The translations under genes were made by a program, and so were the position numbers. Shown here one piece after another: positions 33,007 through 53,375 of a DNA stretch of 64,000 nt. This DNA is from Actinomycetota bacterium. GTDB lineage: Bacteria > Actinomycetota > JAHEXW01 > JAGVPG01. The stretch spans positions 30,192 to 94,191 of the forward strand of contig JAGVPG010000009.1 in the NCBI GenBank assembly GCA_020052375.1. The letters run 5' to 3'. The notes beneath the pieces were generated by a model. The model was not told the origin of the DNA. It saw only the letters and a program-made list of their open reading frames with translations, and made no database searches. The first letter of the stretch is position 1. Each line of letters starts with the position of its first letter.

Positions 33007-33022
33007 TAGGAAGCGGGTAATT

Positions 33023-36596: not shown

Positions 36597-36671
36597 TGGG
36601 GCGTGGTGAAGTGGTAACACAGCGGATTTTGGTTCCGCCATTCGGAGGTTCGAATCCTCCCGCCCCAGCCA
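36597..36671 (+). tRNA. tRNA-Gln (anticodon UUG)
   Basis: TGGGGCGTGGTGAAGTGGTAACACAGCGGATTTTGGTTCCGC...GGTTCGAATCCTCCCGCCCCAGCCA. Confidence 0.85.
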
Positions 36672-36785
36672 TCTAAAAGTGTGTGCCTGGGTTAGGTTGA
36701 AGTAAATCTTCTCGCTAAAGATATCACGCTCGAAGAATTCTTCAACCTCCCCAGGCACTGTATGTATATATGGGGTATCGCTGCG

Positions 36786-36808
36786 GATTCTCACCGTCCA
36801 AGTCTGTC
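36786..36808 (+). repeat. repeat family C (GATTCTCACCGTCCAAGTCTGT)
   Basis: Related copies at 42040-42069 and 43171-43200. Confidence 0.6.
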
Positions 36809-36816
36809 GATGGCCG

Positions 36817-37045
36817 TTAAAAAGTGAGTCCTCGCAGGGGAATATGTTTAAAGTCATACTCCTGGTCGCCGTCCTTGATTTTGCTCTCATTTCCTACAGG
36901 TCGTTCGTAAGACTCTTTTTTACTCTTATACTGAAGGTCTTCCTCACAGACCTGGTAAATACTCGCAATATCTAAGGTCGGCTCCCCTATGGAGCATGAC
37001 TTAAACTATATCCTCCTGCTCGGACAATGCACGTTGTTTATTCAA
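36817..37045 (+). repeat. dispersed ~230-nt repeat R1, copy B
   Basis: Begins with the family-A motif (TTAAAAAGTGAGTCCTCGCA). The core aligns with the reverse complement of 6105-6250. Ends with ...TCCTGCTCGGACAATGCACGTTGTTTATT, which is also seen at 41840-41885. Confidence 0.7.
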
Positions 37046-37071
37046 CGAAAATCTTACAGGATGGGCGCCGC

Positions 37072-37094
37072 GGTTCGAATCCTCCCGCCCAGCA
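37072..37094 (+). repeat. partial duplicate of tRNA-Gln 3' end (att-like)
   Basis: GGTTCGAATCCTCCCGCCCAGCA versus the tRNA 3' end GGTTCGAATCCTCCCGCCCCAGCCA (one deletion). It lies 400 bp downstream of the intact tRNA. Confidence 0.7.
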
Positions 37095-37271
37095 AGGTCA
37101 GACAGGGTGTCAAGAGGATTGGCCCCCTTTATTTATAGAAATATCTAACAAACCATCGCGAAACATAGACAAAACCCATGAGGTTCACAAATCTAATTCC
37201 TTGTATCGGTAGATATTAAAGAAAGGGGGCTATATTCTCTTGAGTGCTATAATTATTCCAAGGAGGACAGC

Positions 37272-39245
37272 TTGCCTGAAGATAGTCGACACACCAATCC
37301 TACCGCATCTGAATTACTAAGAAAGGCAGATAGTAAACATATTTCAACTGCTTTTAGCCGGATCGATAAGATGAGTCCTTGTCCTATCGGTCAAGGTGGT
37401 GGCTGCTGCCGAGTCTGTTTCATGGGACCATGCCGTCTGTCTAGTCAAAAAATGCCTAGAAAAGTCGGTATCTGTGGGGCGACTCTAGATACTATAGTCG
37501 CCAGAAACTTAGCCCGGTCTATCGCTGCCGGATGTTCAGCTCACGCTGCTCATGGTCTTGACCTAGCACTGACTCTGCAAGCTGTAGCCACTGGGAAAGC
37601 CAAGGACTATCAGATAAAGGATTCAGGCAAGCTTAAGGTATTAGCCAAACAGTATAGTATCAAGACCGATGGACTCTCCGATAATGAAATCGCACTTAAG
37701 GTGGCTGATGCGGCTATTTCCAGTTATGGTCAACAAGATACCGAACTGAGCCTCGTGTCCCAACCTCCCAAAAAACGTCTTGAGCTGTGGAAGTCGTTAG
37801 GTATCTTCCCACGCGGCATCCACCAGGAAATAGTCGAAACCTGTCACCAGACCAGTATCGGTGTTAATCAGGACCCTGAACATATACTAAAACAGGCCTT
37901 AAGAGTCTCTCTGGCTGATGGTTGGGGCAGCTCCATGATGGCAACTCAGATATCAGATGTTCTGTTCGGGACACCCCAGCCGAAACTAGCTCAAACAAAC
38001 CTTGGAGTATTGAAACAAGATGAGGTAAATATTGTCGTTCATGGTCACACACCGACTCTAGCCGAAGCAATAGTCAACGCAGTGAGTGATGACGGACTTA
38101 AAAAACTAGCCAAATCTAAAGGTGCAAAAGGAATCAACTTGGTCGGCATATGCTGCACCTCAAATGAAATCTTAATGCGGCATGGTATTTCACCTGTGGG
38201 TGGTTTTCTCGATCAGGAACTGGCTATTCTAACAGGTTCAGTTGAGGCCATGGTTGTAGACATTCAATGCGTCATGCAGGCCTTATCACCGCTTGTCAAG
38301 CATTTTCACACTAAACTAATAACGACTTCACCACAAGCTAAGATTGAAGATGCAACACACGTGGAGTTTAACATCTCTGAAGCCTCTGGGACAGCCAAGC
38401 AAATCGTAAAATTAGCTATCGACAACTTCCCTAATCGAAAGAGTACTGCCATACCAGAAATGACCAGCGACCTTGTGGCCGGTTTCTCACATGAATATAT
38501 AAGATATATGCTGGGTGGAAAATACCGCGCCTCATTCGGTCCATTAAATGATGCTATCATTACAAGCTGTATCCAGGGAGTTGTCGGAGTAGTCGGCTGT
38601 AATAATCCCAGAGTTTCACAAAAAAACAGCCACACCTACGTCGTTAAAGAGTTAATCCGCAATAATATTTTGGTCGTCCAAACGGGATGTGCCGCTTTGA
38701 ACAGTGCTAAGCATGACCTATTGATACCGGAAGCTTTACACGATGCTGGACCATTCTTAAGAGAAGCATGCAAGACCATTGGTATGCCACCTGTTCTACA
38801 TCTTGGTTCCTGTGTTGATAATTCGAGGATATTGACCATCCTGACCAACATCGTTAATAAAGGTGGGCTTGGAGAAGATATAAATGATCTACCGGTGGCA
38901 GCAGTTGTCCCCGAATGGATGAGTGAAAAATCCCTAGCCATCGGTACATACTTCGCTGCATCCGGAGTTCCGGTGTTTTTTGGTTCAGGTTCACCTGTAT
39001 CTGATAGCCATCTTGTATCCAGTCTTATAAACAGCAACTGGGAACAACAGCTTGGAGGCAAGATCAGGTTTGAGTCTGATCCCAGAAAAATAGTTAAAGA
39101 CGTGATAGAGCACATCAACAAGAAACGTCAGATTCTTGGTATCTATGGTGTCGGCGGCCGAAAACAAAGCCCAGCCGAAATCGAAAGGATGAGAGCATTA
39201 AGACAATGGCAAATGAGGTTAAGGAGTTCGCTTCAGCAGTTATAA
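37272..39245 (+). CDS. cooS: anaerobic Ni-dependent carbon monoxide dehydrogenase catalytic subunit (copy 2, lower GC)
   Basis: HISTAFSRIDKMSPCPIGQGGGCCRVCFMGPCRL...GICGA; 657 aa; collinear with copy 1. Confidence 0.85.
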   Translation: MPEDSRHTNPTASELLRKADSKHISTAFSRIDKMSPCPIGQGGGCCRVCFMGPCRLSSQKMPRKVGICGATLDTIVARNLARSIAAGCSAHAAHGLDLALTLQAVATGKAKDYQIKDSGKLKVLAKQYSIKTDGLSDNEIALKVADAAISSYGQQDTELSLVSQPPKKRLELWKSLGIFPRGIHQEIVETCHQTSIGVNQDPEHILKQALRVSLADGWGSSMMATQISDVLFGTPQPKLAQTNLGVLKQDEVNIVVHGHTPTLAEAIVNAVSDDGLKKLAKSKGAKGINLVGICCTSNEILMRHGISPVGGFLDQELAILTGSVEAMVVDIQCVMQALSPLVKHFHTKLITTSPQAKIEDATHVEFNISEASGTAKQIVKLAIDNFPNRKSTAIPEMTSDLVAGFSHEYIRYMLGGKYRASFGPLNDAIITSCIQGVVGVVGCNNPRVSQKNSHTYVVKELIRNNILVVQTGCAALNSAKHDLLIPEALHDAGPFLREACKTIGMPPVLHLGSCVDNSRILTILTNIVNKGGLGEDINDLPVAAVVPEWMSEKSLAIGTYFAASGVPVFFGSGSPVSDSHLVSSLINSNWEQQLGGKIRFESDPRKIVKDVIEHINKKRQILGIYGVGGRKQSPAEIERMRALRQWQMRLRSSLQQL

Positions 39246-40081
39246 AGGAGGCGCCAAAGCTCGTCTCCAAAGCATCGGGCAAGCTTCAAGCCGCTATCAA
39301 GAAAAAAGGAGCTGAAGGACCTGTATGTTGTACTCCATCAGACTATCTTCCGGTCATCTATGGCATTACCGGAAAGAAGATCTCTATACTATCCGATCTC
39401 AACCAGATTATCGTACAAGCACGTGACCTCCTCGCCGAACCACCTGGCAACAACCATTGGCTTCCTTATCTGGGTCACGCTCTGGATGCTGGAATAGCTT
39501 CCCTATTTGCCGAAGAGATAATCGAAGCTGTTGATATCAATCCAGATTCCAATTCATCAGATGGTTTGTGGCTAGGCGCTCCGTCAGACGACATAGTTCA
39601 GACATGCGGATTGCAGATTATCAACGGAGCTATGAAAGGATTCGCCACCTTGATTGGAGCTGCTCCCTCAACTGACAAAGCAAAGCAAATTGCCCAAGAG
39701 CTAAAAGAAAAAGAACTCTACATTTTCCTAGTCGGTCAGGACAAAGAGGAATCTATGGGCAGGCAGCTTAGGCAGGCAGGAATAAACCTCGGCTGGGATG
39801 AGCATATAATTCCTTTTGGTCGTCAAACCTCAAGCATAGTCCATGTCTTTGGTTTTTTAACTAGAATAGCTATAATTCACGGTAAGATAAAACCCGGGGA
39901 TTTAAAGGGGATATATGCTTTTCTCAAAGAAAAGGTGTTTGGCTTTTTTATGATCCTCGACCAGGTAGATAATGAAAAATATGCCATGGCCGCCGCTGCA
40001 AACAGTTTCGGGTTTTTGACCATGGCTCAGGAATACGTTCCCCAGCTACTACCCATTCATACTCTACATAGATTGCGCTAA
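39206..40081 (+). CDS. hypothetical protein, CooS-associated; possibly CdhB-like (CODH epsilon-like)
   Basis: Overlaps the cooS-2 stop. Weak by-eye resemblance to archaeal CdhB (AVIKEAPKLVSKASGKL ~ PEVAAKLISKAKRP; AAANSFGFL ~ NATMSFGNL). Confidence 0.35.
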   Translation: MANEVKEFASAVIKEAPKLVSKASGKLQAAIKKKGAEGPVCCTPSDYLPVIYGITGKKISILSDLNQIIVQARDLLAEPPGNNHWLPYLGHALDAGIASLFAEEIIEAVDINPDSNSSDGLWLGAPSDDIVQTCGLQIINGAMKGFATLIGAAPSTDKAKQIAQELKEKELYIFLVGQDKEESMGRQLRQAGINLGWDEHIIPFGRQTSSIVHVFGFLTRIAIIHGKIKPGDLKGIYAFLKEKVFGFFMILDQVDNEKYAMAAAANSFGFLTMAQEYVPQLLPIHTLHRLR

Positions 40082-40164
40082 TTTCTCCTAGTGTTAAACT
40101 TTCTAAGCAGCCATGCTTCAATAATGAGATGGACAATCTGTACATACGGTAGCAAGGGGGGAAT

Positions 40165-41622
40165 GTGAAAATACCCAAGTGCATGAGCACACAGCACCCG
40201 GACAACGTAAATCCTCCTTTCTTCGCCAGAGATACCGAGCTTGGCGGGGAAGATGAAGTTCAGGAAGCGTACTATGCTTTCTCTAATTTAGGCTGCGACG
40301 AGCAGATGTGGGATTATGAAGGCAAGGAAGTCGATGCTTTTGTAGTCAAGAAGCTTCTTAACAAGTACGAATCGTTTTTCAAGCAGCAACGGTTAGGAAA
40401 AGACATATTTCTGACATTGCGAGTGCCAAATCCTACTGTAGAGAGAACAGAAGCAAAAGTGCTGCTGGAAACCCTTGAGAGCATACCGAGGTCATATGAC
40501 GTCGCTAAACTGTTTTATGGAGATGATATCCCGCCCATTTTCGAGGTCATTTTGCCGATGACAGCTTCATATAAATGCGTGGACAGGATCTACCAGTACT
40601 ACCGGGAATTTGTAGTCGGCAAACAAACTAGACCTTTTAGAAACGGCGACCTTACAATCGCCGAATGGATCGGCGAGTTCAAACCGGCAAGGATCAATGT
40701 GATTCCTCTTTTTGAAGATATGGCTCATATGCTTGCCGCTGCCGATATCGTCGGAGACTATCTTCGCGGAAAAGAAATGAAATACCAGCGAGTCTTTCTC
40801 GCCCGTTCAGACCCTGCTATGAACTACGGAATGATCAGTGCCGTCCTTCTTAACAAGATAGCACTTCAACGATTATATAAGTTCTCAAATAGTTCAGGCG
40901 TTCGGATTTATCCCATCGTGGGCGTCGGGTCAGCGCCGTTTAGGGGAAATCTAAGACCGTCTACTGTTGATAGAGTCTCCGCAGAATACCCGAGTGCGCA
41001 CACTTTTACTGTGCAGTCAGCATTCAAGTATGACAATCCGCCGAACGTCGTCGAACAAGCAGTGAAACGTTTGTCGACTAGGGAGAGCGGCGCGCCGCAC
41101 GAGGTCGATGAAGGTAGAGCTCTTGAGATCATCGATAAGTATTGCCGGGAATATAAACGCCAGATTATCGGATTGGCTCCGGTTATCAACCGCATAGCCC
41201 GACACATACCGAGCAGGCGTAAGCGAAAACTGCATATCGGTCTCTTTGGGTACGCTAGGAATATCGAAGGCGTCTCTTTACCCCGAGCAATCGGCTTCAC
41301 CGCTTCATTGTACTCGATAGGGCTGCCGCCCGAGATACTCGGCCTTAACGCGCTGGACGACGATGACCTCAAATATATACGCACCGCATACACGAATTTC
41401 GATATCGATCTTAAGGATGCACTCCAGTATCTCGACGTGAACTGCAATCTCGTTCCTAAGAGTCTGTTAAAGCGTATTGATACAATGGGTATTTCATTCA
41501 AGCCTGATTCATCTCATGTTACTGTGACATCACGCATCGTCTCACTGCTTCAAGAAAACCGGACAGAGGATCTTCCCGAACATATTTTACAGGCGGCAAA
41601 CATTAGAAGGTTTCTAGGCTAG
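40165..41622 (+). CDS. ppcA: archaeal-type phosphoenolpyruvate carboxylase
   Basis: N-terminal MKIPKCMSTQHPDNVNPPFFAR is the archaeal-type PEPC hallmark; ~485 aa. Confidence 0.75.
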   Translation: MKIPKCMSTQHPDNVNPPFFARDTELGGEDEVQEAYYAFSNLGCDEQMWDYEGKEVDAFVVKKLLNKYESFFKQQRLGKDIFLTLRVPNPTVERTEAKVLLETLESIPRSYDVAKLFYGDDIPPIFEVILPMTASYKCVDRIYQYYREFVVGKQTRPFRNGDLTIAEWIGEFKPARINVIPLFEDMAHMLAAADIVGDYLRGKEMKYQRVFLARSDPAMNYGMISAVLLNKIALQRLYKFSNSSGVRIYPIVGVGSAPFRGNLRPSTVDRVSAEYPSAHTFTVQSAFKYDNPPNVVEQAVKRLSTRESGAPHEVDEGRALEIIDKYCREYKRQIIGLAPVINRIARHIPSRRKRKLHIGLFGYARNIEGVSLPRAIGFTASLYSIGLPPEILGLNALDDDDLKYIRTAYTNFDIDLKDALQYLDVNCNLVPKSLLKRIDTMGISFKPDSSHVTVTSRIVSLLQENRTEDLPEHILQAANIRRFLG

Positions 41623-41764
41623 CTCATAAGGTCTCTGCAAACATCGTGATCAGACGTTATACTAAGAAAGGCCAGTCGTTCGACCCACTCGGGCCAAGTG
41701 AAGTTTCCCTATTACGGCTTCTTTATGTATTTAGCAATCTTCTCAAACTTAACAAGGGAGCCAT

Positions 41765-41890
41765 CTAAAAAGTGAGTGCTCGCAGTCGGCGCGAACACCA
41801 TTAAATGTGAGTGCTGCGCGTTAGCACAGATGTATAAAAGCATTGTTCGCGTCTCCTGCTTGCACAATGCACATTTGTTATTAAGAGCGT
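41765..41890 (+). repeat. internally shortened copy of repeat R1 (both conserved ends present)
   Basis: 5' end CTAAAAAGTGAGTGCTCGCA, 3' end TCTCCTGCTTGCACAATGCACATTTGTTATT. The intervening sequence is shorter than in copy B. Confidence 0.55.
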
Positions 41891-42039
41891 AAAGCGGAAA
41901 TCGTAAAGCGAAAAGGAAGACTTGGTAGGTGCGGATCTTAAAGTCGGATGGTTTAGATCTTCTTTCCGCTTTCCGTTCTTTTTCACCTTATTCACTCTGT
42001 TTACCGTTCACCACTTCACCATCTCCTACCTGCCATCTG

Positions 42040-42069
42040 CTGATCAAGATCCTCACCGTCCAGGTTTGC
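42040..42069 (+). repeat. repeat family C copy upstream of the REC-GGDEF gene
   Basis: GATCAAGATCCTCACCGTCCAGGTTTGCAG. Confidence 0.6.
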
Positions 42070-42177
42070 AGGGGAGTTTGAGAACTGGGTATAAGCGTTT
42101 CTTTACACTTCACGGTTGGCTATAATTGGCTTGAAGAGCTACCGGTCTTCAATGGATGTGTAGTCTGGAGCTGTGAT

Positions 42178-43065
42178 ATGAGAGATAAGTCTATAAATGT
42201 CTTACTGATCGAAGATAGCCCGGCTCATGTAGTCATCATCAGAGAAATGCTCAAAGCAAAGAAAGACATCGAATTCAACATTGTGCACGTTAAAGATCTT
42301 TCTGAAGGGTTGAACTATCTTACCTCGGGCGATACAGACATTGTTTTGCTGGATCTAGGCTTGCCGGATAGCACCGGTATCGAGACATTCGACAAGATAC
42401 ATGCACAAGATAGAGATATACCCATTGTTGTAATAACAGCCAATGCCGACGATGAGCTGGCGATAGAAGCCGTGCAAAAGGGAGCTCAGGACTATCTAGT
42501 CAAAGAACAAACAGACTCTGACATGCTGATACGCTCCGTCCGGTACGCTATCGAGCGGAACAGGATGTATTCAGTTCTACGCGGGCTTGTGCTTATAGAC
42601 GATCTGACCGGTCTGTACAATCGAAGAGGCTTTATTGCTCTTGGCAAGCGAAATATCAAACTGGCGGACCGGACAAAGAAACGCCTACTCTTCGGCATAG
42701 CTGACCTGGATGGATTGAAGTTGATCAACGACAGTTTCGGTCATAAAGAGGGAGACCGGGCACTACTGGAGACGGTGCAGATACTGAAAGAGACTTTTAG
42801 GGAAACGGATATCATCGCTCGAATGGGCGGTGATGAGTTTGCGATCATCGCCATAGAGGCCTCGATTGAAACCGCCAACGTCGTTACCGCCAGATTGAAG
42901 GCGAATGTCGATAGACATAATTTGAAAAAGAACCCGGACCGCCGATTATCTATCAGCATAGGTGTGACATTCTATGAGCCCGGGTCGCATAGTTCGATCG
43001 ATGAGCTTATTTCAAAAGCGGATGAATTGATGTATATGGAGAAAAACGCTAAAAGAGAACCCTAA
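42178..43065 (+). CDS. response regulator receiver + GGDEF diguanylate cyclase
   Basis: REC (VLLIEDSPAHVVIIREML..., DLGLPDSTG); GGDEF (RMGGDEFAI, DSFGHKEGD). Confidence 0.85.
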   Translation: MRDKSINVLLIEDSPAHVVIIREMLKAKKDIEFNIVHVKDLSEGLNYLTSGDTDIVLLDLGLPDSTGIETFDKIHAQDRDIPIVVITANADDELAIEAVQKGAQDYLVKEQTDSDMLIRSVRYAIERNRMYSVLRGLVLIDDLTGLYNRRGFIALGKRNIKLADRTKKRLLFGIADLDGLKLINDSFGHKEGDRALLETVQILKETFRETDIIARMGGDEFAIIAIEASIETANVVTARLKANVDRHNLKKNPDRRLSISIGVTFYEPGSHSSIDELISKADELMYMEKNAKREP

Positions 43066-43170
43066 CCCAGTTTCCCCTCCTTTTTGTTGGTTACTCGCTA
43101 ATTATCTTGGAGGAACGATGGCTCTTTTACAACAATCAGGCCTTTTTACAGAAGTTTAAAGGCACAACCG

Positions 43171-43200
43171 CCGATCAAGATTCTCACCGTCCAAGTCTGT
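43171..43200 (+). repeat. repeat family C copy downstream of the REC-GGDEF gene
   Basis: CCGATCAAGATTCTCACCGTCCAAGTCTGT. Confidence 0.6.
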
Positions 43201-43217
43201 ACTCCAAGAATGCAGAC

Positions 43218-43733
43218 TCAGTAACCTCGCAAAACAGACATGGCCCCGCTTAGCAACAATATAGATAAACCTAACGCAAAATTCACCTTGACCAAGTTTA
43301 GAGACACTTTTTGAAGTGATGCCTTTTCAGGATCGGTTTCTGTCCGCATAATCGTGGGAGTCAAGACCAAGCTCCTATAGAAATGAATCGAGACCATGGT
43401 GAAAACCAAGATCAGCTTCAGGATTAAGATCATCATCCAGTCGTTTTCAAGAAATCCGATTTCTGAAGGCGGCTTACCTAACCAAGCCAATGTAAACCCG
43501 GTGACAACGAGGGTTATTATGCAGTAGTTTGCTAGCGAAGTGAATCGTTTTGAGATTTCTCCTATAAGCTTGCCTGACTCCGCTCCCAAAACATCTTTGG
43601 ATGATGGTAATGCGATAAACAGGATAAATGTTATTCCACCGATCCAGATGGTTGTTGCGATAAGATGTATCCAGTAAACGGTTATTACTATTATCTCTTT
43701 GATATCTTCCTCCTTGTGATCTAAGAAAGGCAA
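43218..43733 (-). CDS. small integral membrane protein (4 predicted TM), paralogous to 45137-45658
   Basis: Hydrophobic segments. Shared pattern with the paralog (LLAAHNIAAVLCVAAPFY... versus ITVYWIHLIATTIWIGGITF...). Family not assigned. Confidence 0.55.
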   Translation of the reverse strand: MPFLDHKEEDIKEIIVITVYWIHLIATTIWIGGITFILFIALPSSKDVLGAESGKLIGEISKRFTSLANYCIITLVVTGFTLAWLGKPPSEIGFLENDWMMILILKLILVFTMVSIHFYRSLVLTPTIMRTETDPEKASLQKVSLNLVKVNFALGLSILLLSGAMSVLRGY

Positions 43734-43760
43734 CTGATCGCGTATGATCCGAATCCTTAA

Positions 43761-43880
43761 TTACTCATCTGTCTTAACAGGCGGGATGCAACCGCAACCG
43801 CAGGTACTCTTTTTCTGGACCTTGATTTCGGGCTTCTTCTCTTCGGGATTTTCTTTCTCTTCCTTGGCATCTTTCGCCAT
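43761..43880 (-). CDS. unannotated 39-aa peptide with C-terminal TCGCGC motif
   Basis: Minus-strand ATG at 43880 preceded by AGGTGGTGA (6-nt spacing). Translation MAKDAKEEKENPEEKKPEIKVQKKSTCGCGCIPPVKTDE. Below the ORF-track length cutoff. Confidence 0.45.
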   Translation of the reverse strand: MAKDAKEEKENPEEKKPEIKVQKKSTCGCGCIPPVKTDE

Positions 43881-43957
43881 TTATATCACCACCTTCTGTA
43901 TAAGTGTATGCATATCTTCTTATAATCATAGGCAAAAAAATTAGCTTTTCATAGCTT

Positions 43958-44323
43958 TCAAGTTTTTCCCGTACTTGCTTGTTTGCCCAAACAGCCGCAA
44001 GTGCAGATACGGTTAAGTCTTTGACGGCATTTTTCAAGGGCTTCCCGGTTTAGTGAGTAGTAGATCCAGTACCCCTGCCTTTCGTCCTTTACGAGCCCCG
44101 CGCTTCTAAGCACCCGCAAATGCTGGGATACCGCGGACTGGGTGATCTTCAATGCTTCAGCCAAGGCATTAACATTCATAGACTCTTCTTTTAGGAGTTC
44201 GATGATCTCTATTCTCTTATCAACAGAGAGTAGTTTAAATAGGTCAGCTGCTTCTTTCATGCGTTCACCTCGGTAAGAATATAAGTATATACTAATATAC
44301 TTTAACATACTTTGAGTTGTCAA
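43958..44323 (-). CDS. ArsR/SmtB-family transcriptional regulator with C-terminal CTCGC motif
   Basis: wHTH NVNALAEALKITQSAVSQHLRVLRSAGLV; C-terminal RICTCGCLGK. Confidence 0.8.
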   Translation of the reverse strand: MTTQSMLKYISIYLYSYRGERMKEAADLFKLLSVDKRIEIIELLKEESMNVNALAEALKITQSAVSQHLRVLRSAGLVKDERQGYWIYYSLNREALEKCRQRLNRICTCGCLGKQASTGKT

Positions 44324-44425
44324 GCACTTTTTAGATTAGGCGATTCGGGGACTTGACAAATCTCGTGCATTGATATACTATTCAAGTAATCAATAAGATA
44401 ATAGAATAGTTGATAAGGAGGATAG

Positions 44426-45100: not shown

Positions 45101-45136
45101 TCGGATTCTTAGATCACCCTTAAAAGGAGACTTAAA

Positions 45137-45658: not shown

Positions 45659-45662
45659 GACT

Positions 45663-45986
45663 TTGAAACTGGCGATTGTAATTTCTAATGATGATCCTGA
45701 AACCATCTGGAATGCATTCCGCTTTGCAAATTTTTCTATTAGTAAAAGCGAAAAAGTGAGAGTGTTTCTATTAGGAAAAGGTGTGGACTACGAGGGCCTT
45801 TCGACAGAGCGATTCGATCTGCTCGAGCAAGCCAAAAAGTTCGTAGAATCAGAAAATGCGGAAATACTTGCCTGTGGTACGTGTCTTAAGATCAGACATC
45901 AGGAAAGTACCGGACTGTGCCCGGTTTCTACTATGGATGATCTGTATGAGCTAGTGAAGGAAAGTGACAAGATCCTGACTTTTTAA
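45663..45986 (+). CDS. DsrE/DsrF/TusD-like sulfur-relay fold protein
   Basis: 107 aa, MKLAIVISNDDPETIWNAFRFANFSI...ACGTCL; resembles the YchN/DsrE family. Confidence 0.45.
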   Translation: MKLAIVISNDDPETIWNAFRFANFSISKSEKVRVFLLGKGVDYEGLSTERFDLLEQAKKFVESENAEILACGTCLKIRHQESTGLCPVSTMDDLYELVKESDKILTF

Positions 45987-46005
45987 GAAATTATCTAAAG
46001 TTATC

Positions 46006-46040
46006 TTGACGTTGTCCGAATTAGTAACTATCGTTACTAA
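46006..46040 (+). promoter_or_regulatory. promoter (-35 TTGACG) with perfect 8-4-8 palindrome operator TTAGTAAC-TATC-GTTACTAA
   Basis: Read directly. The palindrome 46021-46040 overlaps the predicted -10. RBS AGGAGAA and ATG at 46057. Confidence 0.5.
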
Positions 46041-46056
46041 TTGTAGACCAGGAGAA

Positions 46057-47325
46057 ATGGTGAATATCAGAAATATTTCGGACATTAACGGCACTTTACA
46101 TGAACAGAAAACAAACGGGATGCAATGGACTCTCGAACCACGCGTCGAGAAGACTCTCGACGCTCTGCCTTTCAATGTCTTGCTGTTGGATCAGGATCAC
46201 AAGATCGTCTGGGCGAATAAGGCGGTATCGCAGATACTGGGCCTCCGCACCTCGGCTATAGTCGGTAATCAGTGCTTCAAGATCGTACACGGCAGAGAAA
46301 AAGTGCTTGATAACTGTCCGATGGAAGAAGCGATCCGTATTGGCCGGCCTGTCGAATGTGAGTTGCTGGATGAAGAATCGGGCCGGCTGACACATTCGGC
46401 TGTATACCCGACAAAGCTCATGACCGGCAACGGGCAAAAGATATACCTGCACGCCACGAGGGATATAACCGAAAGACGGATCGATGTCGATCAAGCTTGC
46501 GAAGGCGAGACGATCCTGCAGAAGTTATGCGCCGGCGCGCCGCTCATCGTGCGAGAAGAAGACTTTTCACGAGTTAAATCATATATGGACGCACTCCGGA
46601 GCAAGGGCGTCAGCGACCTCATCGCGTACTTTAAAGAGCACCCCGAAGTAGTCGCGCATTGCGCGTCGATGGTGGAAGTACTGAACGTGAACAAACCGAA
46701 CCTGGCTTCGGATAAAAAGAACGACCATGATCTGTTCATGGTAGACCTCGGCGGTTTTATCTCACGCGATTCGTACGGGACTTTCTGGGAGGAACTGGTC
46801 GCCATATCTGAAGGGCAAGACCGGTTCGAGGGCGAGACCAGCACGCTGTCACTTACCGGCGAGCAACGCGATATACTGGTCAAATGGGCTGTCTTGGACG
46901 GTCATGAAAACACGTACGCGCGAGTCCTTGTGTCTATAATCGATATCACGGGTATAAAGCAGGCGCAAAGGTCCCTAACGCTCGAACACCGCCATATGCT
47001 GTCATTATTCGATAGAGTCACCGATAAGGTATACTTCAGCGATCCGGAGACGGACGAGATCCTGTATATCAATGATGTATTGAGAGAGAGATTCGGCGAC
47101 GTCGTAGGGCAGAAGTGTTACCGCGCGTTTCAGGGCAAAGAAGCTCCATGCGAGGCATGCACAAACCCCGAGATCTTCGACAAGAACCTGTATATGCCGG
47201 TCGTGCGGGAACTCAAGAACCCGCTGGACGGCCGCTGGTATAGATGTGTCTCAAAAGCCGTCAGATGGCCGGACGGCAGACTGGTCAGATTCGCCACCGC
47301 TACGGATATCACAGACGAAAAATAA
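46057..47325 (+). CDS. PAS-domain sensor protein (no recognisable output domain; C-terminal C-x10-C-x2-C)
   Basis: LPFNVLLLDQDHKIVWANKAVSQILGL (PAS); a second PAS-like region; C-terminal CYRAFQGKEAPCEAC. Confidence 0.65.
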   Translation: MVNIRNISDINGTLHEQKTNGMQWTLEPRVEKTLDALPFNVLLLDQDHKIVWANKAVSQILGLRTSAIVGNQCFKIVHGREKVLDNCPMEEAIRIGRPVECELLDEESGRLTHSAVYPTKLMTGNGQKIYLHATRDITERRIDVDQACEGETILQKLCAGAPLIVREEDFSRVKSYMDALRSKGVSDLIAYFKEHPEVVAHCASMVEVLNVNKPNLASDKKNDHDLFMVDLGGFISRDSYGTFWEELVAISEGQDRFEGETSTLSLTGEQRDILVKWAVLDGHENTYARVLVSIIDITGIKQAQRSLTLEHRHMLSLFDRVTDKVYFSDPETDEILYINDVLRERFGDVVGQKCYRAFQGKEAPCEACTNPEIFDKNLYMPVVRELKNPLDGRWYRCVSKAVRWPDGRLVRFATATDITDEK

Positions 47326-47352
47326 GACAGAACGAAAAATCCGCATTTCTTG

Positions 47353-47411
47353 TTGACACTGTTCCCGCATCGATGTATTATCAGTATTATCAGAATAATC
47401 AGTAACTACTG
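47353..47411 (+). promoter_or_regulatory. sigma70-type promoter (TTGACA-17-TATTAT) followed by triple direct repeat (T/A)ATTATCAG
   Basis: TTGACA 47353-47358, TATTAT 47376-47381, then repeats TATTATCAG/TATTATCAG/AATAATCAG/TAACTACTG at 47376-47411. AAGGAG RBS and ATG at 47428. Confidence 0.55.
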
Positions 47412-47427
47412 TCTTAAGGAGTGTGCT

Positions 47428-47667
47428 ATGAAATCAATAAACGGGTGCTGTAGCGTTGACTCCGTCGTCTCGGTCGACGCCAGGGGGCAGATGGTCCTGC
47501 CGAAAGACCTTAGGGACAAGGCAGGCATAAAGGAAGGAGACAAGCTGGCGCTTGTGAGCTGGCAAAAAGATGGCAAGATCTGCTGCATAATGATGCTCAA
47601 AGCGGATGAGTTCTCGGATATGGTAAAAGAAGTGTTGGGCCCTATGTTGAAGGAGGTAAAGAAATGA
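47428..47667 (+). CDS. small SpoVT/AbrB-like swapped-hairpin protein with two Cys pairs, first gene of arsM operon
   Basis: VVSVDARGQMVLPKDLRDKAGIKEGDKLALV; CC at residues 7-8 and ICCIMM. Strong SD. 4-nt overlap with arsM. Confidence 0.6.
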   Translation: MKSINGCCSVDSVVSVDARGQMVLPKDLRDKAGIKEGDKLALVSWQKDGKICCIMMLKADEFSDMVKEVLGPMLKEVKK

Positions 47668-48497
47668 AAGACGAAGATATAAGGAAAAGCGTACGTCAAG
47701 GCTATGGGAGCATTGCGAAAGATCAAGGTTCATGTTGCGGCCCACAGGCCGGGTCATGCTGCGGTCCACAGACGGTTTCGCAGGAAACAATAACCAAAAA
47801 CATCGGATACAGGGACGAAGATCTGCAAGGTGTCCCGGAAGGCGCGGATCTCGGTCTCGGCTGCGGTAATCCCATAGCTCTGGCGTCTCTAAAAGAAGGA
47901 GAGACGGTCGTCGATCTGGGTTCAGGCGCGGGCCTGGACTGCTTTATAGCAGCAAGGCAGGTGGGAAAGAGCGGTAAAGTGATAGGGATAGATATGACCG
48001 TAGAGATGATCGAAAGAGCACGAGAGAACGCGACAAAAGGCGGGTTTGATAATGTCGAATTCAGATTGGGCGAGATCGAGAACCTTCCCGTCGCGGATGA
48101 TGCCGCCGATATCATCATCTCGAACTGTGTCATCAACCTGTCCCCGGACAAAGATAGGGTATTCGAGGAATCTTACAGAGTCCTGAAGCCGGGAGGAAGG
48201 CTGATGGTATCGGATATAGTCTTGATGAAAGAGCTGCCGGCACGGATCAGACAATCGATCCAGGCGTATATCGGGTGCCTCTCGGGAGCGGACATGAAAA
48301 GCGAATACCTGCGGAAGATCGAACACACGGGCTTTCAGGACGTCCGGATCATGGAAGAAAATGTTTTTCCGGTAGATCTGATGCAGAACGATCCGACCGC
48401 ACAAGCCCTCTATAAGGAACTTGCGGTCACACCGGAGGAACTGGAAAAACTGCAAGACGCCATAGTCAGCATCAGGGTGTCTGCCAAGAAACCATAG
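47664..48497 (+). CDS. arsM: arsenite S-adenosylmethionine methyltransferase
   Basis: N-terminal CCGPQAGSCCGPQ; VVDLGSGAGLDCFIAARQVG; NCVINLSPDK; conserved Cys (CLSG). Confidence 0.8.
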   Translation: MKDEDIRKSVRQGYGSIAKDQGSCCGPQAGSCCGPQTVSQETITKNIGYRDEDLQGVPEGADLGLGCGNPIALASLKEGETVVDLGSGAGLDCFIAARQVGKSGKVIGIDMTVEMIERARENATKGGFDNVEFRLGEIENLPVADDAADIIISNCVINLSPDKDRVFEESYRVLKPGGRLMVSDIVLMKELPARIRQSIQAYIGCLSGADMKSEYLRKIEHTGFQDVRIMEENVFPVDLMQNDPTAQALYKELAVTPEELEKLQDAIVSIRVSAKKP

Positions 48498-48584
48498 GTC
48501 TTATCCCTTTGTAACATTTATTACTTAAGAGTTCGTCCGAAAGACCGAAGTATATATATGTAAGATGAATGAGAGGTTGATCGG

Positions 48585-50492
48585 ATGAGCGCACAAAAAG
48601 TAAAATCGCCGACAATTAAACAAAAAAAGATGCATACATATACCCTTGCGAGCGGCAATGGGCACATCAAGTCGGGTGTTCAAGAGTTGATCGACTCTCT
48701 ACCTTTTTACGTCTTTCTGGTCGACAGCGACCACCGCATAGTCATGGCCAATGACAAGATCCGCGGTGCTTTGGGTGTCGAGCCGGAGACCATAACGGGC
48801 ATGTATTGCCCGACGGTCGTACATGGCTTGGACGAGCCCTTTCCCGGTTGTCCTCTGGAAGATGCCGTTTTTACAGGTAAGGCAGTCGAGAAAAGGCTTT
48901 ACGATAAGAAAATCGGAAGTTGGACATTGTCAGCCGTTTATCCTACAAGCTTTAAAACGGACGAGGGGAAAGCCGTCTTTCTGCACACCGCGAGGGATAT
49001 AACAAACGTCGTGCGGAACGAGGAAGAGAATAAACTGAAGGCGCAATTACTGGATGCATCGACGGACTCGATATTCGTGGTCGATAACAATGGCCGTTTT
49101 CAGTACATGAACGATACTACCTTTAAGACCAGGGGTTATAAAAGCAAAGAAGAACTTATGTCTAAACCGCTGAAAGACCTCGATACGCCGGAATTCGCAA
49201 AGCTGATAGACCAGCGTATCAAACAGATACTCGAGAAAGGCGAAGCGACGTTTGAAACCGCCCATTATCGAAAAGACAGATCTGTTATGCCGCTGGAAAT
49301 ACACAGCAAAGTCATCGACTACAACGGGCAGAAAAGTTTCTTAAGCGTCGCCAGGGATATAACCTCAAGAAAAGCGGCCGCGGAAGAGCTCATTAGAAAC
49401 TACGACATTCAGCGTGTCATAAACAAGCTTTTAAGTCTGTCGCTGGAAGACGTCCCTTTGGAAGATATCTTAAGACAAGCCTTAGATATGATCCTCGCGA
49501 TACCATGGCTGGTGTCTCAGTCGAGGGGTAGCATCATGATGGTCGAAGACGAACCCGGTGTGCTCGTCATGAAAGCCCAAAACGGGCTCGCCGAACCGAT
49601 CAAGAAGGCATGCGCAAAGGTCCCGTTCGGCCGCTGCATGTGCGGCCTTGCGGCCAAGAATAAAAGGATCGAGTTCGCGGACGCGCTGGATAAAAGGCAT
49701 GTCACGACATACGAGGGGATATCTCCTCACGGACATTATTGCGTACCCATCATGTATTCCGACAGAGTGCTCGGGGTGATCAACGTCTATACGAGAGAAG
49801 GTCATCAGCGGAACCAGCGGGAAGAGGAATTTCTAAGCTCGGTCGCCAATACACTGGCCGGTATAATCATCCGCAAAGAAGACGATGAGATGCTCAGCCG
49901 GACTCTGAAGAGTCTGGAGATGACGATCGAAGGGACCGTCCAGTCGATGGCCCTGGTGGTCGAGACCAGGGATCCTTATACGGCCGGTCACCAGCGGCGG
50001 GTGGCGGATCTTTCGGTCGTAATCGCTAAGGAGCTCGGTTTGCCGGAAGATGAAACGGAAGGCATAAAGACGGCGGCGACCGTTCACGATATCGGAAAGA
50101 TAAACGTTCCCGCGGAGATCCTCACCAAGCCCGGGCGTTTGACAGATATCGAGTTCGGTATCATAAAGACGCATGCTGGAGCGGGATATAATATCCTCAA
50201 ACATATCCAGTTCCCATGGCCCGTCGCCATGATGGTGTTACAGCATCATGAAAGACTGGACGGCAGCGGTTACCCGCATCGCAGAAAAGCCAAAGACATA
50301 ATCAAAGGCGCGAAGATTCTGGCTGTAGCCGATGTCGTGGAAGCAATGTCGACTCATCGCCCGTACCGTCCCGCGCTCGGGGTAAACACAGCTCTGGCAG
50401 AGATCAAGAAGAACAAAGGCAACCTCTATGATGCCGAAGTCGTCGACGCGTGCGTGAAGGTCTTCAAGCGCGGCTTCACCTTCCACGAATAA
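48585..50492 (+). CDS. PAS-PAS-GAF-HD-GYP c-di-GMP phosphodiesterase (copy 1)
   Basis: HD-GYP: TVHDIGKI, HHERLDGSGYP. GAF-like segment with CMCG. Two PAS. Confidence 0.85.
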   Translation: MSAQKVKSPTIKQKKMHTYTLASGNGHIKSGVQELIDSLPFYVFLVDSDHRIVMANDKIRGALGVEPETITGMYCPTVVHGLDEPFPGCPLEDAVFTGKAVEKRLYDKKIGSWTLSAVYPTSFKTDEGKAVFLHTARDITNVVRNEEENKLKAQLLDASTDSIFVVDNNGRFQYMNDTTFKTRGYKSKEELMSKPLKDLDTPEFAKLIDQRIKQILEKGEATFETAHYRKDRSVMPLEIHSKVIDYNGQKSFLSVARDITSRKAAAEELIRNYDIQRVINKLLSLSLEDVPLEDILRQALDMILAIPWLVSQSRGSIMMVEDEPGVLVMKAQNGLAEPIKKACAKVPFGRCMCGLAAKNKRIEFADALDKRHVTTYEGISPHGHYCVPIMYSDRVLGVINVYTREGHQRNQREEEFLSSVANTLAGIIIRKEDDEMLSRTLKSLEMTIEGTVQSMALVVETRDPYTAGHQRRVADLSVVIAKELGLPEDETEGIKTAATVHDIGKINVPAEILTKPGRLTDIEFGIIKTHAGAGYNILKHIQFPWPVAMMVLQHHERLDGSGYPHRRKAKDIIKGAKILAVADVVEAMSTHRPYRPALGVNTALAEIKKNKGNLYDAEVVDACVKVFKRGFTFHE

Positions 50493-50627
50493 CCGGTAAG
50501 AAGTGAGTATCTCAAGATTGTAACGATTATTACTTGATTATCTAAAAAACAACTGCTATATGTAAGATAATCTATTTTGTTATTTGCAGTTTATGTAGGT
50601 CTGTTTATATAGATGAAAGAAGAATGA

Positions 50628-52490
50628 TTGAAGAATAAACACGACATCGAAGCAGATAACACACTAAAAGCTGACCTCCTGGATGCTACAATGGATTCCA
50701 TCTTTGTATCCGATCTTGATGGGAATGTTCTTTACGTCAATGATACGGCATACAAAACACGAGGTTATAAGGACAAGAACGAGCTTATCGGCAAGAACCT
50801 CAATCAGCTGCTCGTACCCGAATACGCGAAGCTTATAAAGTCACGAATAAAAGAGATCCTAAAAAAAGGGGAAGCGACATTCGAAAGCGAGCACTACCGG
50901 AAGGACGGGTCAGTCATCCCGGTGGAAGTCCACAGCCGGGTCATCGAAAGCGCCGGACAAACCCTGTTACTCAGCGTTAATAGAGACATATCCGCACGAA
51001 AAGAATCAGAGCAGAGATTCTTGGAAGAAAAGGGTTTGACGGAAGCGGTTATGAACAGCCTGCCCGGCATCTTCTATCTGTTCGATCCGGCGGGCAACAT
51101 GGTGCGGTGGAATAAGAACGTCGAGAAGGTATTCGGTTACAAAACCGGACAGATAAAAGACATGCGAGCTCTGGACTTCGTGCCGGCGCACTTCTTAGAC
51201 TCCGTGACTATGGCGATACAAGAAGTCATATCAAAGGGGAACGTCACGGTCGAAGCGGAGTTGATGGCAAAAGACGGGACGTGCCTGCCGTTCTTTCTAT
51301 CAGGCTCGCTACTCCGGACGAAGGACGCAATATATGTAATCGGTACGGGCATAGACCTGAGCGAGAAAAGGCAAGCGGAAGAAAAACTGGAAAGAAACTA
51401 CGACATCCAGCGCGTCATCAATACGCTGCTAAGTCTCTCGCTGGAAGATGTGCCTTTAGACGAGATCTTGCAGCGGACTCTGGACCTTATCCTGTCCATC
51501 CCGTGGCTTGCTTTCGAGCACAGGGGTGCCATATTTATTGTCGAAGATGCGACAAGAACGCTTGTCATGCGGGCCGAGAGCGGCCTTGGAGAACCTCTTT
51601 CCCTGGAATGCGCAAGGGTACTGTTTGGCCACTGCCTTTGCGGCCGGGCTGCCTTGCATAAAAGAATAGAGTTTGCATCGCGGATAGTTAAAAGACATAC
51701 CGTAAGGTATGAAGGCATGACTCCCCACGGGCATTACTGTGTGCCGATAGTCTCGTCCAGTCGCGTGCTCGGCGTCATCAATATATATACGGATGAAGGC
51801 CATAGGCGAAGCCAGCGCGAAGAACAGTTCCTGACGGCTGTGTCCAATACGATCGCGGGCATCATAATACGCATAGAAGAAGACGAAAAACTAAAACAGA
51901 CGATGGAGGAACTCGAGGAGACCATAGAAGGAACGATCCAGGCGATGGCGATGACTGTAGAGACACGGGATCCATATACTTCCGGGCATCAGGAAAGGGT
52001 GGCTCTCTTGACAAAGGTCATCGCTGAACAGCTCGGCCTGTCCGTGCATGAAGTCGCGGGCATATACACGGCGGCGCTTATACACGACATAGGGAAGATA
52101 AGCGTTCCGGCCGAGATCCTGACAAAGCCGGGACGTTTATCTAAGTTCGAGTTCAATATAATCAAGACGCACTCGGAATCCGGACACACTATCCTGATAA
52201 AGATCAAATTCCCATGGCCTATCGCGCAGATAGTGCTGCAGCATCATGAACGGATCGACGGCAGCGGCTACCCGAAAGGACTCAAGGGTGATGAGATCGT
52301 CCTTGGTGCCCGGATAATCGCCGTAGCCGATGTGATCGAAGCGATGGCCTCACATAGGCCTTACCGGTCCGCAATCGGTATAGACCTTGCTTTAAAAGAA
52401 GTGACGGATAACAAAGGCAAGCTGTATGACGCCGAAGTCGTCGACGCGTGCATGAAGGTCTTTAACCACGGCTTCACCTTCCACCAATAA
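50628..52490 (+). CDS. PAS-PAS-GAF-HD-GYP c-di-GMP phosphodiesterase (copy 2, tandem paralog)
   Basis: LIHDIGKISVPAEILTKPGRL, HHERIDGSGYP; collinear with copy 1 from the second PAS onward. Confidence 0.85.
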   Translation: MKNKHDIEADNTLKADLLDATMDSIFVSDLDGNVLYVNDTAYKTRGYKDKNELIGKNLNQLLVPEYAKLIKSRIKEILKKGEATFESEHYRKDGSVIPVEVHSRVIESAGQTLLLSVNRDISARKESEQRFLEEKGLTEAVMNSLPGIFYLFDPAGNMVRWNKNVEKVFGYKTGQIKDMRALDFVPAHFLDSVTMAIQEVISKGNVTVEAELMAKDGTCLPFFLSGSLLRTKDAIYVIGTGIDLSEKRQAEEKLERNYDIQRVINTLLSLSLEDVPLDEILQRTLDLILSIPWLAFEHRGAIFIVEDATRTLVMRAESGLGEPLSLECARVLFGHCLCGRAALHKRIEFASRIVKRHTVRYEGMTPHGHYCVPIVSSSRVLGVINIYTDEGHRRSQREEQFLTAVSNTIAGIIIRIEEDEKLKQTMEELEETIEGTIQAMAMTVETRDPYTSGHQERVALLTKVIAEQLGLSVHEVAGIYTAALIHDIGKISVPAEILTKPGRLSKFEFNIIKTHSESGHTILIKIKFPWPIAQIVLQHHERIDGSGYPKGLKGDEIVLGARIIAVADVIEAMASHRPYRSAIGIDLALKEVTDNKGKLYDAEVVDACMKVFNHGFTFHQ

Positions 52491-52503
52491 CAAAGGAGGA
52501 GTT

Positions 52504-53313
52504 ATGAGCGGGTCAAAAAGGGGTTTGATCATCGGTATCATCGTTCTGGTCGTACTCGCATTGGCGGCCGGCAGCGGGATCGGTGCCTATCTGCTGCTAA
52601 GTAAAGGAAAACAGGTGTCAGCGTCGACCCTGAAAAGCCGGACCGACAAGATGAAAGCGGATGCGGATAAACTGGCAAAAAACGTCGACTCGATGGAGAA
52701 CGGACAGACGTCGACGACCGGTGAAGAAACGACGGAAACAAGCCAGGCAACGGAGACCACATCGACTTCCGAAGAAGAGGCATATATACAAGAACTGGAA
52801 ACGACGGTCACGGAGATGGACCAGTATTATCAGGAGACGATAGCTCTTCTTCAAGAGACGGAAGACGAGCTGAACGCGCTCAATGAATCCATAAACGAAC
52901 TCAACCAGACGGGACAGGAGCTTGAAGCGGACCTCGCTCAAGCCCTTGCAATAGCCGAGGAAGCGCAGACGACGGCAGAGACAGCGATCACTCAAGCAAA
53001 CGCTGTCACTACGCAGTTCAAAAGCTCACTGGAACAGGCAAAGGAACTGGTCAAAGCAAGAAAAGAACTGTGGCAAGCCGAGAAAGACGGCAATCCGGTC
53101 AAGATCAAACTGGCCGAGAACAGACTGTCGGATGTTATATCGCAAGCCGGGCAGGCGCTGGCGTCATTAGATAAGATCGGCGGCGGCCAGGGTTTTGTAA
53201 ACAAGTTCTTTGCACAGGTCCCTGACTATATGAGCCGCATAGGTGGGTTCAGCGCGATGAAGGACAAGTTCAAAACCGGACTTCCGAAGCCGAGCATCCC
53301 GCGGCGTCCTTGA
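52504..53313 (+). CDS. hypothetical membrane-anchored coiled-coil protein with acidic T/E-rich linker
   Basis: N-terminal TM (LIIGIIVLVVLALAAGSGIGAYLLL), TTGEETTETSQATETTSTSEEE, long helical heptads. Confidence 0.55.
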   Translation: MSGSKRGLIIGIIVLVVLALAAGSGIGAYLLLSKGKQVSASTLKSRTDKMKADADKLAKNVDSMENGQTSTTGEETTETSQATETTSTSEEEAYIQELETTVTEMDQYYQETIALLQETEDELNALNESINELNQTGQELEADLAQALAIAEEAQTTAETAITQANAVTTQFKSSLEQAKELVKARKELWQAEKDGNPVKIKLAENRLSDVISQAGQALASLDKIGGGQGFVNKFFAQVPDYMSRIGGFSAMKDKFKTGLPKPSIPRRP

Positions 53314-53375
53314 ATGTTCAGAAGTTAGCCAGTAGAATAGATACGGTAATGTTTTCAAGCCAAGAGAGGATATAG

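Follow-up and report, generated by a model that had tools for sequence, protein, structure and literature searches.

The 64,000-nucleotide (nt) window analysed here, taken from the metagenome contig JAGVPG010000009.1 (assembly GCA_020052375.1), carries between the genes spoVG and glmU an interval (36597-53313) that opens at a tRNA-Gln gene and was initially annotated as one genomic island of 16.7 kb. Our analysis suggests that the interval is probably a composite of two layers, namely an ancestral resident block centred on PAS and HD-GYP genes and an acquired, mosaic islet of ~9.3 kb situated 3' of tRNA-Gln. The island call therefore survives for 36672-45986, which is of foreign composition, is missing in relatives and adjoins an att-like repeat, but not for the right 7.3 kb, where we found orthologues in a sister species and no compositional break, the very combination that the initial annotation had named as refuting it.

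Flanks and composition of the interval

Pfam and NCBIfam matches define the backbone on both sides: ksgA (33002-33898), veg, ispE, an NTP_transf_3 gene and spoVG on the left, and glmU, prs, ctc, pth, mfd and prsA on the right. The conserved flanks described initially were thus recovered, as was a tRNA-Gln gene at the start of the block, which ARAGORN and Rfam both place at 36597. An Rfam scan at the gathering threshold returned nothing but tRNAs. In Bacillus subtilis the corresponding order is spoVG-glmU(gcaD)-prs-ctc-pth-mfd, and spoVG and glmU are adjacent in many Firmicutes.

35999-36484, plus strand: spoVG, left backbone flank (Pfam SpoVG, 9.8e-33)
36597-36671, plus strand: tRNA-Gln(UUG), conserved backbone and anchor of the variable region (ARAGORN and Rfam)
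53376-54749, plus strand: glmU, right backbone flank (Pfam; 85% amino-acid (aa) identity to sister-species contig L010)

The left segment (36672-45986, ~9.3 kb) begins at the base directly after tRNA-Gln and contains nine genes, from cooS-2 to a DsrE-like gene, while the right segment (46006-53313, ~7.3 kb) contains six, from a PAS-domain protein to a 269-aa protein. All the genes listed in the initial annotation are present (cooS-2, ppcA, REC-GGDEF, two ArsR, PAS, an ArsM-family gene and two HD-GYP genes). GC content falls to 0.42-0.47 over 37-46 kb, against 0.49-0.53 on either side, and tetranucleotide usage departs furthest from the backbone at 36-44 kb of the window (distance 0.24-0.35 versus 0.14-0.20) and is back at baseline from 45 kb. 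GC at third codon positions (GC3) is 0.41-0.52 in nine of nine left-segment genes and 0.59-0.65 in the six right-segment genes, compared with a median of 0.60 in the 38 other genes of the window. A Mann-Whitney test on GC3 separates the left segment from the rest (p = 2.6e-5) but not the right segment (p = 0.57). The left segment is compositionally foreign and the right segment host-like; the deviation anticipated for the whole interval from windowed GC and tetranucleotide profiles was found at 36.7-46.0 kb, whereas 46.0-53.3 kb follows the host.

The right segment in the sister species

The six right-segment genes are the following.

46006-47325, plus strand: PAS-domain protein, 439 aa (PAS_9; 70% aa identity to L010 1016-2248, with the promoter region conserved; GC3 0.62)
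47350-47667, plus strand: AbrB-type small protein of the HgcC family (NF040962, 'HgcAB-associated protein', 125 versus a cutoff of 70)
47664-48497, plus strand: ArsM-family S-adenosylmethionine methyltransferase (NF008823, 362 versus 263; 72% aa identity to L010 60-890)
48585-50492, plus strand: PAS-GAF-HD-GYP 1, predicted cyclic di-GMP (c-di-GMP) phosphodiesterase (PF13487; 75% aa identity to L010 2259-4148; motifs intact)
50628-52490, plus strand: PAS-GAF-HD-GYP 2, divergent tandem paralogue (PF13487; 49% aa identity to the L010 gene; direct repeat at 1998-nt spacing; motifs intact)
52504-53313, plus strand: 269-aa membrane-anchored coiled-coil protein (75% aa identity to L010 4161-4967; no family above cutoff)

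The nearest relative found, a sister species with a GlmU 85% identical at the amino-acid level, is represented by contigs L010 and L016 of sample SRR22808026. L016 carries ispE, the NTP_transf_3 gene and spoVG, and terminates inside the 3' end of tRNA-Gln. L010 starts with 29 nt identical to that 3' end, overlapping L016 by 27 nt; the start codon of its ArsM-like gene lies 30 nt further, and the order continues with PAS, HD-GYP, a 268-aa protein, glmU, prs, ctc, pth, mfd and prsA. On the simplest reading, the sister species would have spoVG, tRNA-Gln, ArsM-like, PAS, HD-GYP, 268-aa protein and glmU in this order, without the segment from cooS to DsrE. DNA homology to L010 restarts exactly at the stop codon of the DsrE-like gene, in the conserved promoter region of the PAS gene. 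At the level of predicted proteins, identities in the right segment (PAS 70%, ArsM-like 72%, HD-GYP1 75%, 269-aa protein 75%) fall, at 70-75%, within the backbone range of 72-92% (Mfd 72%, GlmU 85%, NTP_transf_3 87%, Prs 92%).

The two HD-GYP proteins match PF13487 at 4e-37 and 1e-37 and retain both signature motifs (HDxGK, as VHDIGK and IHDIGK; HHExxDGSGYP, as HHERLDGSGYP and HHERIDGSGYP). The ArsM-like protein is assigned by NF008823, a subfamily-level model, and falls well short of the cutoffs set for the ArsM equivalog and exception models. The HgcC-like gene is found in L022, a contig of the same species as the window, and is missing from L010, where the ArsM-like gene sits directly after the tRNA-Gln 3' end. 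It overlaps the start of the ArsM-like gene by 4 nt, which suggests translational coupling of the predicted pair. We also observed that no hgcAB genes lie near it.

The same slot in more distant relatives

Among family-level relatives (GlmU ~60% aa identity), four contigs carry intact intervals.

L011, tRNA-Gln (inverted) to glmU: two PAS-HD-GYP genes
L012, tRNA-Gln to glmU: a 423-aa protein, HD-GYP, DUF362, a ferredoxin and a phosphoesterase
L041, tRNA-Gln to glmU: one PAS-HD-GYP gene
L042, tRNA-Gln to glmU: two PAS-HD-GYP genes

In a further relative, L019, tRNA-Gln is followed by a Y1 transposase and unrelated genes. The NTP-transferase protein of this European Nucleotide Archive (ENA) contig is identical to that on the NCBI contig L020 of GCA_004196295.1, a family-level spoVG backbone contig whose NTP_transf_3 and SpoVG proteins are 55% and 90% identical to those of the window. 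None of the left-segment genes occurs in the spoVG-glmU slot of L010 and L016, L011, L012, L019, L041 or L042. PAS-HD-GYP genes occupy it in five of six relatives, and the HD-GYP domains of the distant ones are 54-59% identical to those of the window.

The tRNA-Gln gene follows spoVG in the sister species (L016, by alignment) and in all five distant relatives that could be checked (L011, L012, L019/L020, L041 and L042). It is thus conserved backbone and not an island edge peculiar to this genome. As a separate observation, the tRNA-Gln 3' of spoVG in L011 (5768-5841) is inverted relative to the other genomes. From the slot content across relatives it follows that tRNA-Gln and at least one HD-GYP gene are ancestral residents, and hence that spoVG and glmU were not directly adjacent at the time of insertion. 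The adjacency assumed initially is contradicted by the one or two PAS-HD-GYP genes present here in those five relatives. A GlmU scan of the genome collection yielded only relatives at <=47% identity, of which only L007, an Acholeplasmataceae metagenome-assembled genome, was useful; there, spoVG and glmU are directly adjacent.

Gene content of the left, probably acquired segment

The nine genes of the left segment combine carbon metabolism, c-di-GMP signalling and two ArsR units.

37272-39245, plus strand: cooS-2, catalytic subunit of an anaerobic nickel carbon monoxide dehydrogenase (Ni-CODH) (TIGR01702, 605.7 bits versus a cutoff of 478; GC3 0.41)
39206-40081, plus strand: 291-aa protein, N-terminal domain only of acetyl-CoA synthase (ACS) (Pfam CODH_A_N; 40-nt overlap with cooS-2)
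40165-41622, plus strand: ppcA, archaeal-type phosphoenolpyruvate (PEP) carboxylase (PF14010, 1.5e-193; TIGR02751, 610.9 versus 146, positions 1-506 of 506; GC3 0.51)
42178-43065, plus strand: REC-GGDEF diguanylate cyclase (Pfam; GGDEF and RxxD motifs intact)
43218-43733, minus strand: CopD-like membrane protein (PF05425, 1.1e-11; under the NCBIfam CopD cutoff)
43958-44323, minus strand: ArsR/SmtB-family regulator, divergent from the next operon (HTH_5, 9e-16; NF033788, 95 versus 55)
44426-45100, plus strand: ArsR-rhodanese fusion regulator (HTH_5 and Rhodanese; rhodanese loop CRGPYC)
45137-45658, plus strand: 173-aa hydrophobic membrane protein (no Pfam, NCBIfam or PDB match)
45663-45986, plus strand: DsrE-like protein, last gene of the foreign segment (PF02635, 5.7e-11; GC3 0.41)

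CooS-2 shares 59% identity with CooS-1 (P0143), encoded on the same contig presumably by the CODH-family open reading frame (ORF) at 16445-18430 on the minus strand (Pfam Prismane, 661 aa), and a 98% identical CooS-2 is present in a JGI sample. The 291-aa protein is not a full three-domain ACS: it covers positions 2-264 of 705 of the ACS profile NF040764 (194 bits versus a cutoff of 800) and aligns to residues ~13-283 of ACS in the PDB, the A-cluster domains being absent. The same pair, overlapping by ~40 nt, recurs in L013 (ACS N-terminal protein at 11938-12816), L014 (2806-3684) and L015 (9383-10264). In L013 the two proteins are 79% and 63% identical to those of the window and sit beside Asp23, Dak2, DegV and recG; in L015 they are 72% and 51% identical and sit beside Pyr_redox_2, DsrE and an ArsR unit, and neither pair has an adjacent ppcA. 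By gene arrangement, the two genes appear to form a conserved CODH cassette found in at least three unrelated genomic contexts. The L013 organism has ~43% GC and its cassette a native composition, with GC3 of 0.43-0.44, near the 0.41 of cooS-2 in the window, which suggests a lower-GC donor like the L013 organism. Pfam matches in the spoVG-glmU interval included none for cooF, ech hydrogenase, cooC or a full acsB.

Judged from protein families, the segment may confer CO oxidation by the CODH, possibly supplying CO2 or bicarbonate to the PEP carboxylase, a predicted diguanylate cyclase added beside resident c-di-GMP phosphodiesterases, and two putative units under ArsR control that would handle metals or reactive sulfur. 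The ArsR gene has a palindromic operator-like site (44275-44302), and hexamers resembling promoter elements occur on both strands. Between the ArsR and CopD-like genes, we noticed a predicted 39-codon ORF (43764-43880, minus strand) encoding a lysine/glutamate-rich, Cys-rich peptide (…STCGCGCIPP…) with a CGCGC motif at its end, which may be a small metal-binding peptide. Compared with known plasmids and phages, the left segment gave only trivial matches, covering 2-3% of the query.

Same-species contigs and strain-level variation

Two contigs of the same species, L021 (from another metagenome) and L022, are 94-98% identical to the window at the nucleotide level. L021 runs continuously through ppcA, the CopD-like gene, ArsR, ArsR-rhodanese, the 173-aa gene, DsrE and the PAS gene, and so independently confirms the right junction between DsrE and the 439-aa PAS gene. 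L022 is collinear with 46954-50480, reaching HD-GYP1, and a third contig, L017, covers spoVG, tRNA-Gln and 117 nt of the non-coding DNA that follows. Two stretches of the window are missing from L021.

41658-43215, 1558 bp: strain-variable REC-GGDEF cassette; in L021, ppcA and the CopD-like gene are instead separated by 44 unrelated nt
43735-43991: strain-variable 257 bp holding the 39-codon Cys-rich ORF

The left segment is therefore a young mosaic with ongoing strain-level flux.

The tRNA-end repeat, the relic and dispersed short repeats

Directly after tRNA-Gln, a partial copy of the tRNA 3' end encloses a short stretch of non-coding DNA. A direct repeat of a tRNA 3' end is the classic scar of integration into that end.

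36647-36669, plus strand: att-like direct repeat, copy 1, from the T-arm to the 3' end of tRNA-Gln
36672-37071: non-coding relic of 0.4 kb between the repeat copies, with no Pfam or PHROG match in any frame
37072-37093, plus strand: att-like direct repeat, copy 2, a partial tRNA-Gln 3' end with one C missing and no CCA
18583-18601, 36819-36837 and 41767-41785: copies of one short motif
36786-36807, 42042-42068 and 43173-43199: copies of a second short motif

The exact 19-mer GGTTCGAATCCTCCCGCCC is found twice (second copy at 37072-37090) against 0.04 expected; if one 1-nt gap is allowed, the match covers 22 of 23 nt. A 12-nt match at 41758, considered as a decayed second tRNA-end repeat, was rejected since it falls within the range of the shuffle null.

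Within the relic lies a 130-nt imperfect-palindrome repeat (36858-36986), an inverted copy of which, 83% identical over 133 nt, is found at 6121-6250. Each folds into a single long imperfect hairpin (z = -6.4 and -5.5); where the copies differ, at least one change is apparently compensatory. Both occupy tRNA-adjacent intergenic DNA, the copy at 6121-6250 being beside another low-GC insert. In this respect the repeat looks like an element of the miniature inverted-repeat transposable element (MITE) or enterobacterial repetitive intergenic consensus (ERIC) type: like these, it is an intergenic imperfect palindrome forming one long hairpin. It differs from them in that we saw just two copies, could define no terminal inverted repeat with a target-site duplication and found no Rfam family for it.

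The short motifs AAAAAGTGAGTSCTCGCA and GATYCTCACCGTCCARGTYTG occur as exact copies without flanking similarity, three of each, only in spacers of low-GC or variable DNA. Both are common to the relic and to the spacers of the REC-GGDEF cassette, which hold the copies at 41767-41785, 42042-42068 and 43173-43199 as well as a 7-nt tandem repeat (41886-41915), and one copy lies 153 nt upstream of cooS-1. We discarded the idea that they are conserved cis-elements of cooS: no copy is present in the relatives' loci, including upstream of the 79% identical cooS orthologue.

Assembly of the interval and alternative explanations

Our preferred model would start from a backbone of this uncultured Firmicutes lineage consisting of spoVG, tRNA-Gln(UUG), one or two PAS-HD-GYP phosphodiesterase genes and glmU, joined at genus level by the PAS protein, the ArsM-like methyltransferase and the coiled-coil protein. 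The stretch 46006-53313 would have been inherited vertically, with local changes: duplication of the HD-GYP gene, a changed order of PAS and ArsM genes, and addition of the HgcC-like gene. Approximately 9.3 kb of lower-GC DNA would then have been gained directly 3' of tRNA-Gln, once the sister species had split off and before divergence among the strains sampled from this species. Its presumed modules are cooS-2 with the ACS N-terminal gene (a two-gene cassette elsewhere); ppcA; the strain-variable REC-GGDEF cassette; a unit of ArsR, Cys-rich peptide and CopD-like protein; and a unit of ArsR-rhodanese, membrane protein and DsrE-like protein. At least one integration of the tyrosine-integrase type into the tRNA-Gln 3' end probably left the repeat at 37072-37093, the integrating element having decayed to the 0.4-kb non-coding relic. 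The cargo itself could stem from an earlier integration at the same tRNA, its distal repeat and integrase since decayed, or from recombination. That a tRNA-targeting integrase delivered this cargo we infer only tentatively, with a chance somewhat short of even.

Several observations weigh against this model. The tRNA-end repeat brackets only 0.4 kb, leaving the cargo outside the repeat pair, and no further tRNA-end repeat above the shuffle range was detected in 37.1-54 kb, including ~45.98 and 53.3 kb. In agreement with the initial annotation, we found no integrase, and no recombinase, transposase or phage-like fragment, with Pfam and NCBIfam in any ORF or with Pfam and PHROGs in stop-to-stop frames of the spacers; an arrival of the cargo by way of an integrase is accordingly conjectural. 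No independent contig that we found spans 36789-40665, a stretch that starts inside the relic, takes in cooS-2 and ends in ppcA. The join of L016 and L010 consists of the 27-nt overlap within the tRNA gene, so that an island between two tRNA-end copies is conceivable there. Finally, the GC3 spread of 0.41 to 0.52 inside the left segment makes a single insertion unlikely and is consistent with several events.

If the whole of 36597-53313 were a single, old and degraded tRNA-Gln island between formerly adjacent spoVG and glmU, the adjacency of these genes in L007 and many Firmicutes, the opening of the interval at a tRNA gene and its purely accessory-type gene content would be accounted for; the HD-GYP genes must also have entered the slot once, on a very long time scale. 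We nevertheless regard this as very improbable, given that the right 7.3 kb is host-like in composition and orthologous and syntenic in the sister species, that five of six relatives, reaching down to ~60% GlmU identity, have HD-GYP genes there, and that tRNA-Gln is conserved backbone. The right-end heptamer-repeat run claimed at ~53321 is absent as well: the 16-mer TTAGCCAGTAGAATAG occurs once in the window, as it also does in 33 of 100 shuffles, and Tandem Repeats Finder finds nothing in the 62-bp spacer 53314-53375. At the other extreme, the left segment could go back to the ancestor of the genus and have been lost by deletion in the sister species; gene-specific constraints or low expression would then account for its low GC. 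The absence in the sister species does depend on a contig overlap, the same-species strains share the left segment, and the nearest CooS-2 relative (79% aa identity) comes from GCA_004196295.1, the assembly that also holds L020. But nine consecutive, functionally unrelated genes all show low GC3 and deviant tetranucleotides with sharp edges at the tRNA and the DsrE stop, the four outgroup genomes with an intact interval have none of these genes there, and the cooS cassette lies at a different locus in L013, which leaves a history without horizontal transfer improbable. An assembly artefact, in which the contig would be chimeric at the tRNA-Gln/repeat region and the cooS block would come from elsewhere, is likewise very improbable. 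Four independent assemblies do end at tRNA-Gln or within ~120-220 nt after it, which fits a repeated or polymorphic point; coverage by L021 from ppcA to the 439-aa PAS gene, by L022 on to HD-GYP1 and by L017 up to the relic means, however, that any chimera must lie within 36789-40665. Against a chimera there are also the 98% identical CooS-2 in the JGI sample and the lack of any repeat longer than ~22 nt linking this stretch to the rest of the window, apart from the 130-nt hairpin repeat.

How the cargo arrived is a narrower question within the two-layer model. Arrival without an integrase, through homologous recombination across tRNA-Gln and PAS flanks with DNA taken up from a relative sharing them, or stepwise as cassettes at the motifs or the 130-nt repeat, with the tRNA-end repeat being the scar of an unrelated small element, is a serious alternative, although less likely than not. 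It would explain why the repeat encloses the relic and not the cargo, why both motifs occur in the relic and in the strain-variable REC-GGDEF cassette, and why the 130-nt hairpin recurs by another low-GC insert near tRNA genes; differing slot content among relatives is also what a recombination hot spot would give. However, we identified neither a recombinase or transposase nor defined cassette ends, the edges of the REC-GGDEF indel do not match the motif copies, and two or three copies per motif are too few to test function. A more far-reaching version is a long shot: throughout the lineage, the slot might accrete modules around resident HD-GYP c-di-GMP sensors without an integrase, with the modules exchanged via the 19-27-nt motifs and the 130-nt hairpin, and CooS, the translationally coupled ACS N-terminal protein and PEP carboxylase might constitute an undescribed functional CODH unit that, for example, feeds CO-derived CO2 into oxaloacetate.

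Other features of the window

A second low-GC insert (5011-6056; GC 0.39-0.41, GC3 0.38) lies between tRNA-Lys and tRNA-Glu and codes for a protein with a GIY-YIG nuclease domain and for a T5orf172/MUG113 protein that bears a homing-endonuclease-associated repeat; no direct repeats of tRNA-Lys, tRNA-Phe or tRNA-Glu ends were found around this insert at 5.0-6.1 kb. Upstream of cooS-1, within 16445-20126, a 413-aa ORF without a family match has a GC of 0.39 and a GC3 of 0.37 and may be a further acquired patch. The C-terminal tail of SpoVG is a Pro/Glu/Ala-rich extension (36267-36421) with 4.1 copies of a 24-nt tandem repeat at 36267-36365, and the length of the protein varies from 161 aa in the window to 149 aa in L017 and L018, 142 aa in L016 and 106-116 aa in more distant relatives.

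Relation to known systems

For annotation, the two-layer model would mean that only 9.3 kb was acquired and that the HD-GYP, PAS and ArsM-like genes belong to the lineage backbone rather than to island cargo. Biologically, it would describe how an uncultured anaerobic Firmicute recently gained a second CO dehydrogenase together with a PEP carboxylase and c-di-GMP, metal and sulfur modules. This adds to the known mobility of cooS, and no new mechanism is shown. Two points might be worth attention, namely the conserved pairing of CooS with an ACS N-terminal domain that stands alone, and the lineage-wide slot that HD-GYP genes occupy between tRNA-Gln and glmU.

Like islands at tRNA genes, whether of the P4-type integrase, pathogenicity or metabolic kind, the left segment lies directly 3' of a tRNA with a partial tRNA 3'-end repeat nearby, has a non-host composition, carries accessory cargo of metabolic, sensing and resistance type and is patchily present in relatives. 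Unlike them, it has no integrase, excisionase or transfer genes, its repeats enclose only the relic, its cargo has no distal repeat, and it is small (9 kb) and internally mosaic. Lacking two features of an intact integrative island, cargo-bounding repeats and an integrase, it is best called a decayed islet and not a mobile island.

Horizontal transfer of cooS is documented (PMC3328121, Techtmann et al. 2012; PMC6344411, Inoue et al. 2019), and the present case resembles transferred Ni-CODH clusters in that a second cooS copy resides in foreign composition and has close homologues in differing neighbourhoods. It differs in its partner, a stand-alone ACS N-terminal domain, and in the adjoining archaeal-type PEP carboxylase; our literature check, confined to PMC6344411, gave no match in that text for a truncated or N-terminal-domain CooS partner.

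The interval can lastly be set beside the spoVG-glmU-prs-ctc-pth-mfd cluster of the B. subtilis type, whose order is the same on both flanks. The difference is that the ancestral state of this lineage has tRNA-Gln and PAS-HD-GYP between spoVG and glmU. Because that state was already unlike the Bacillus template, a broken 'universally conserved' gene order beside a tRNA is insufficient for calling an island.

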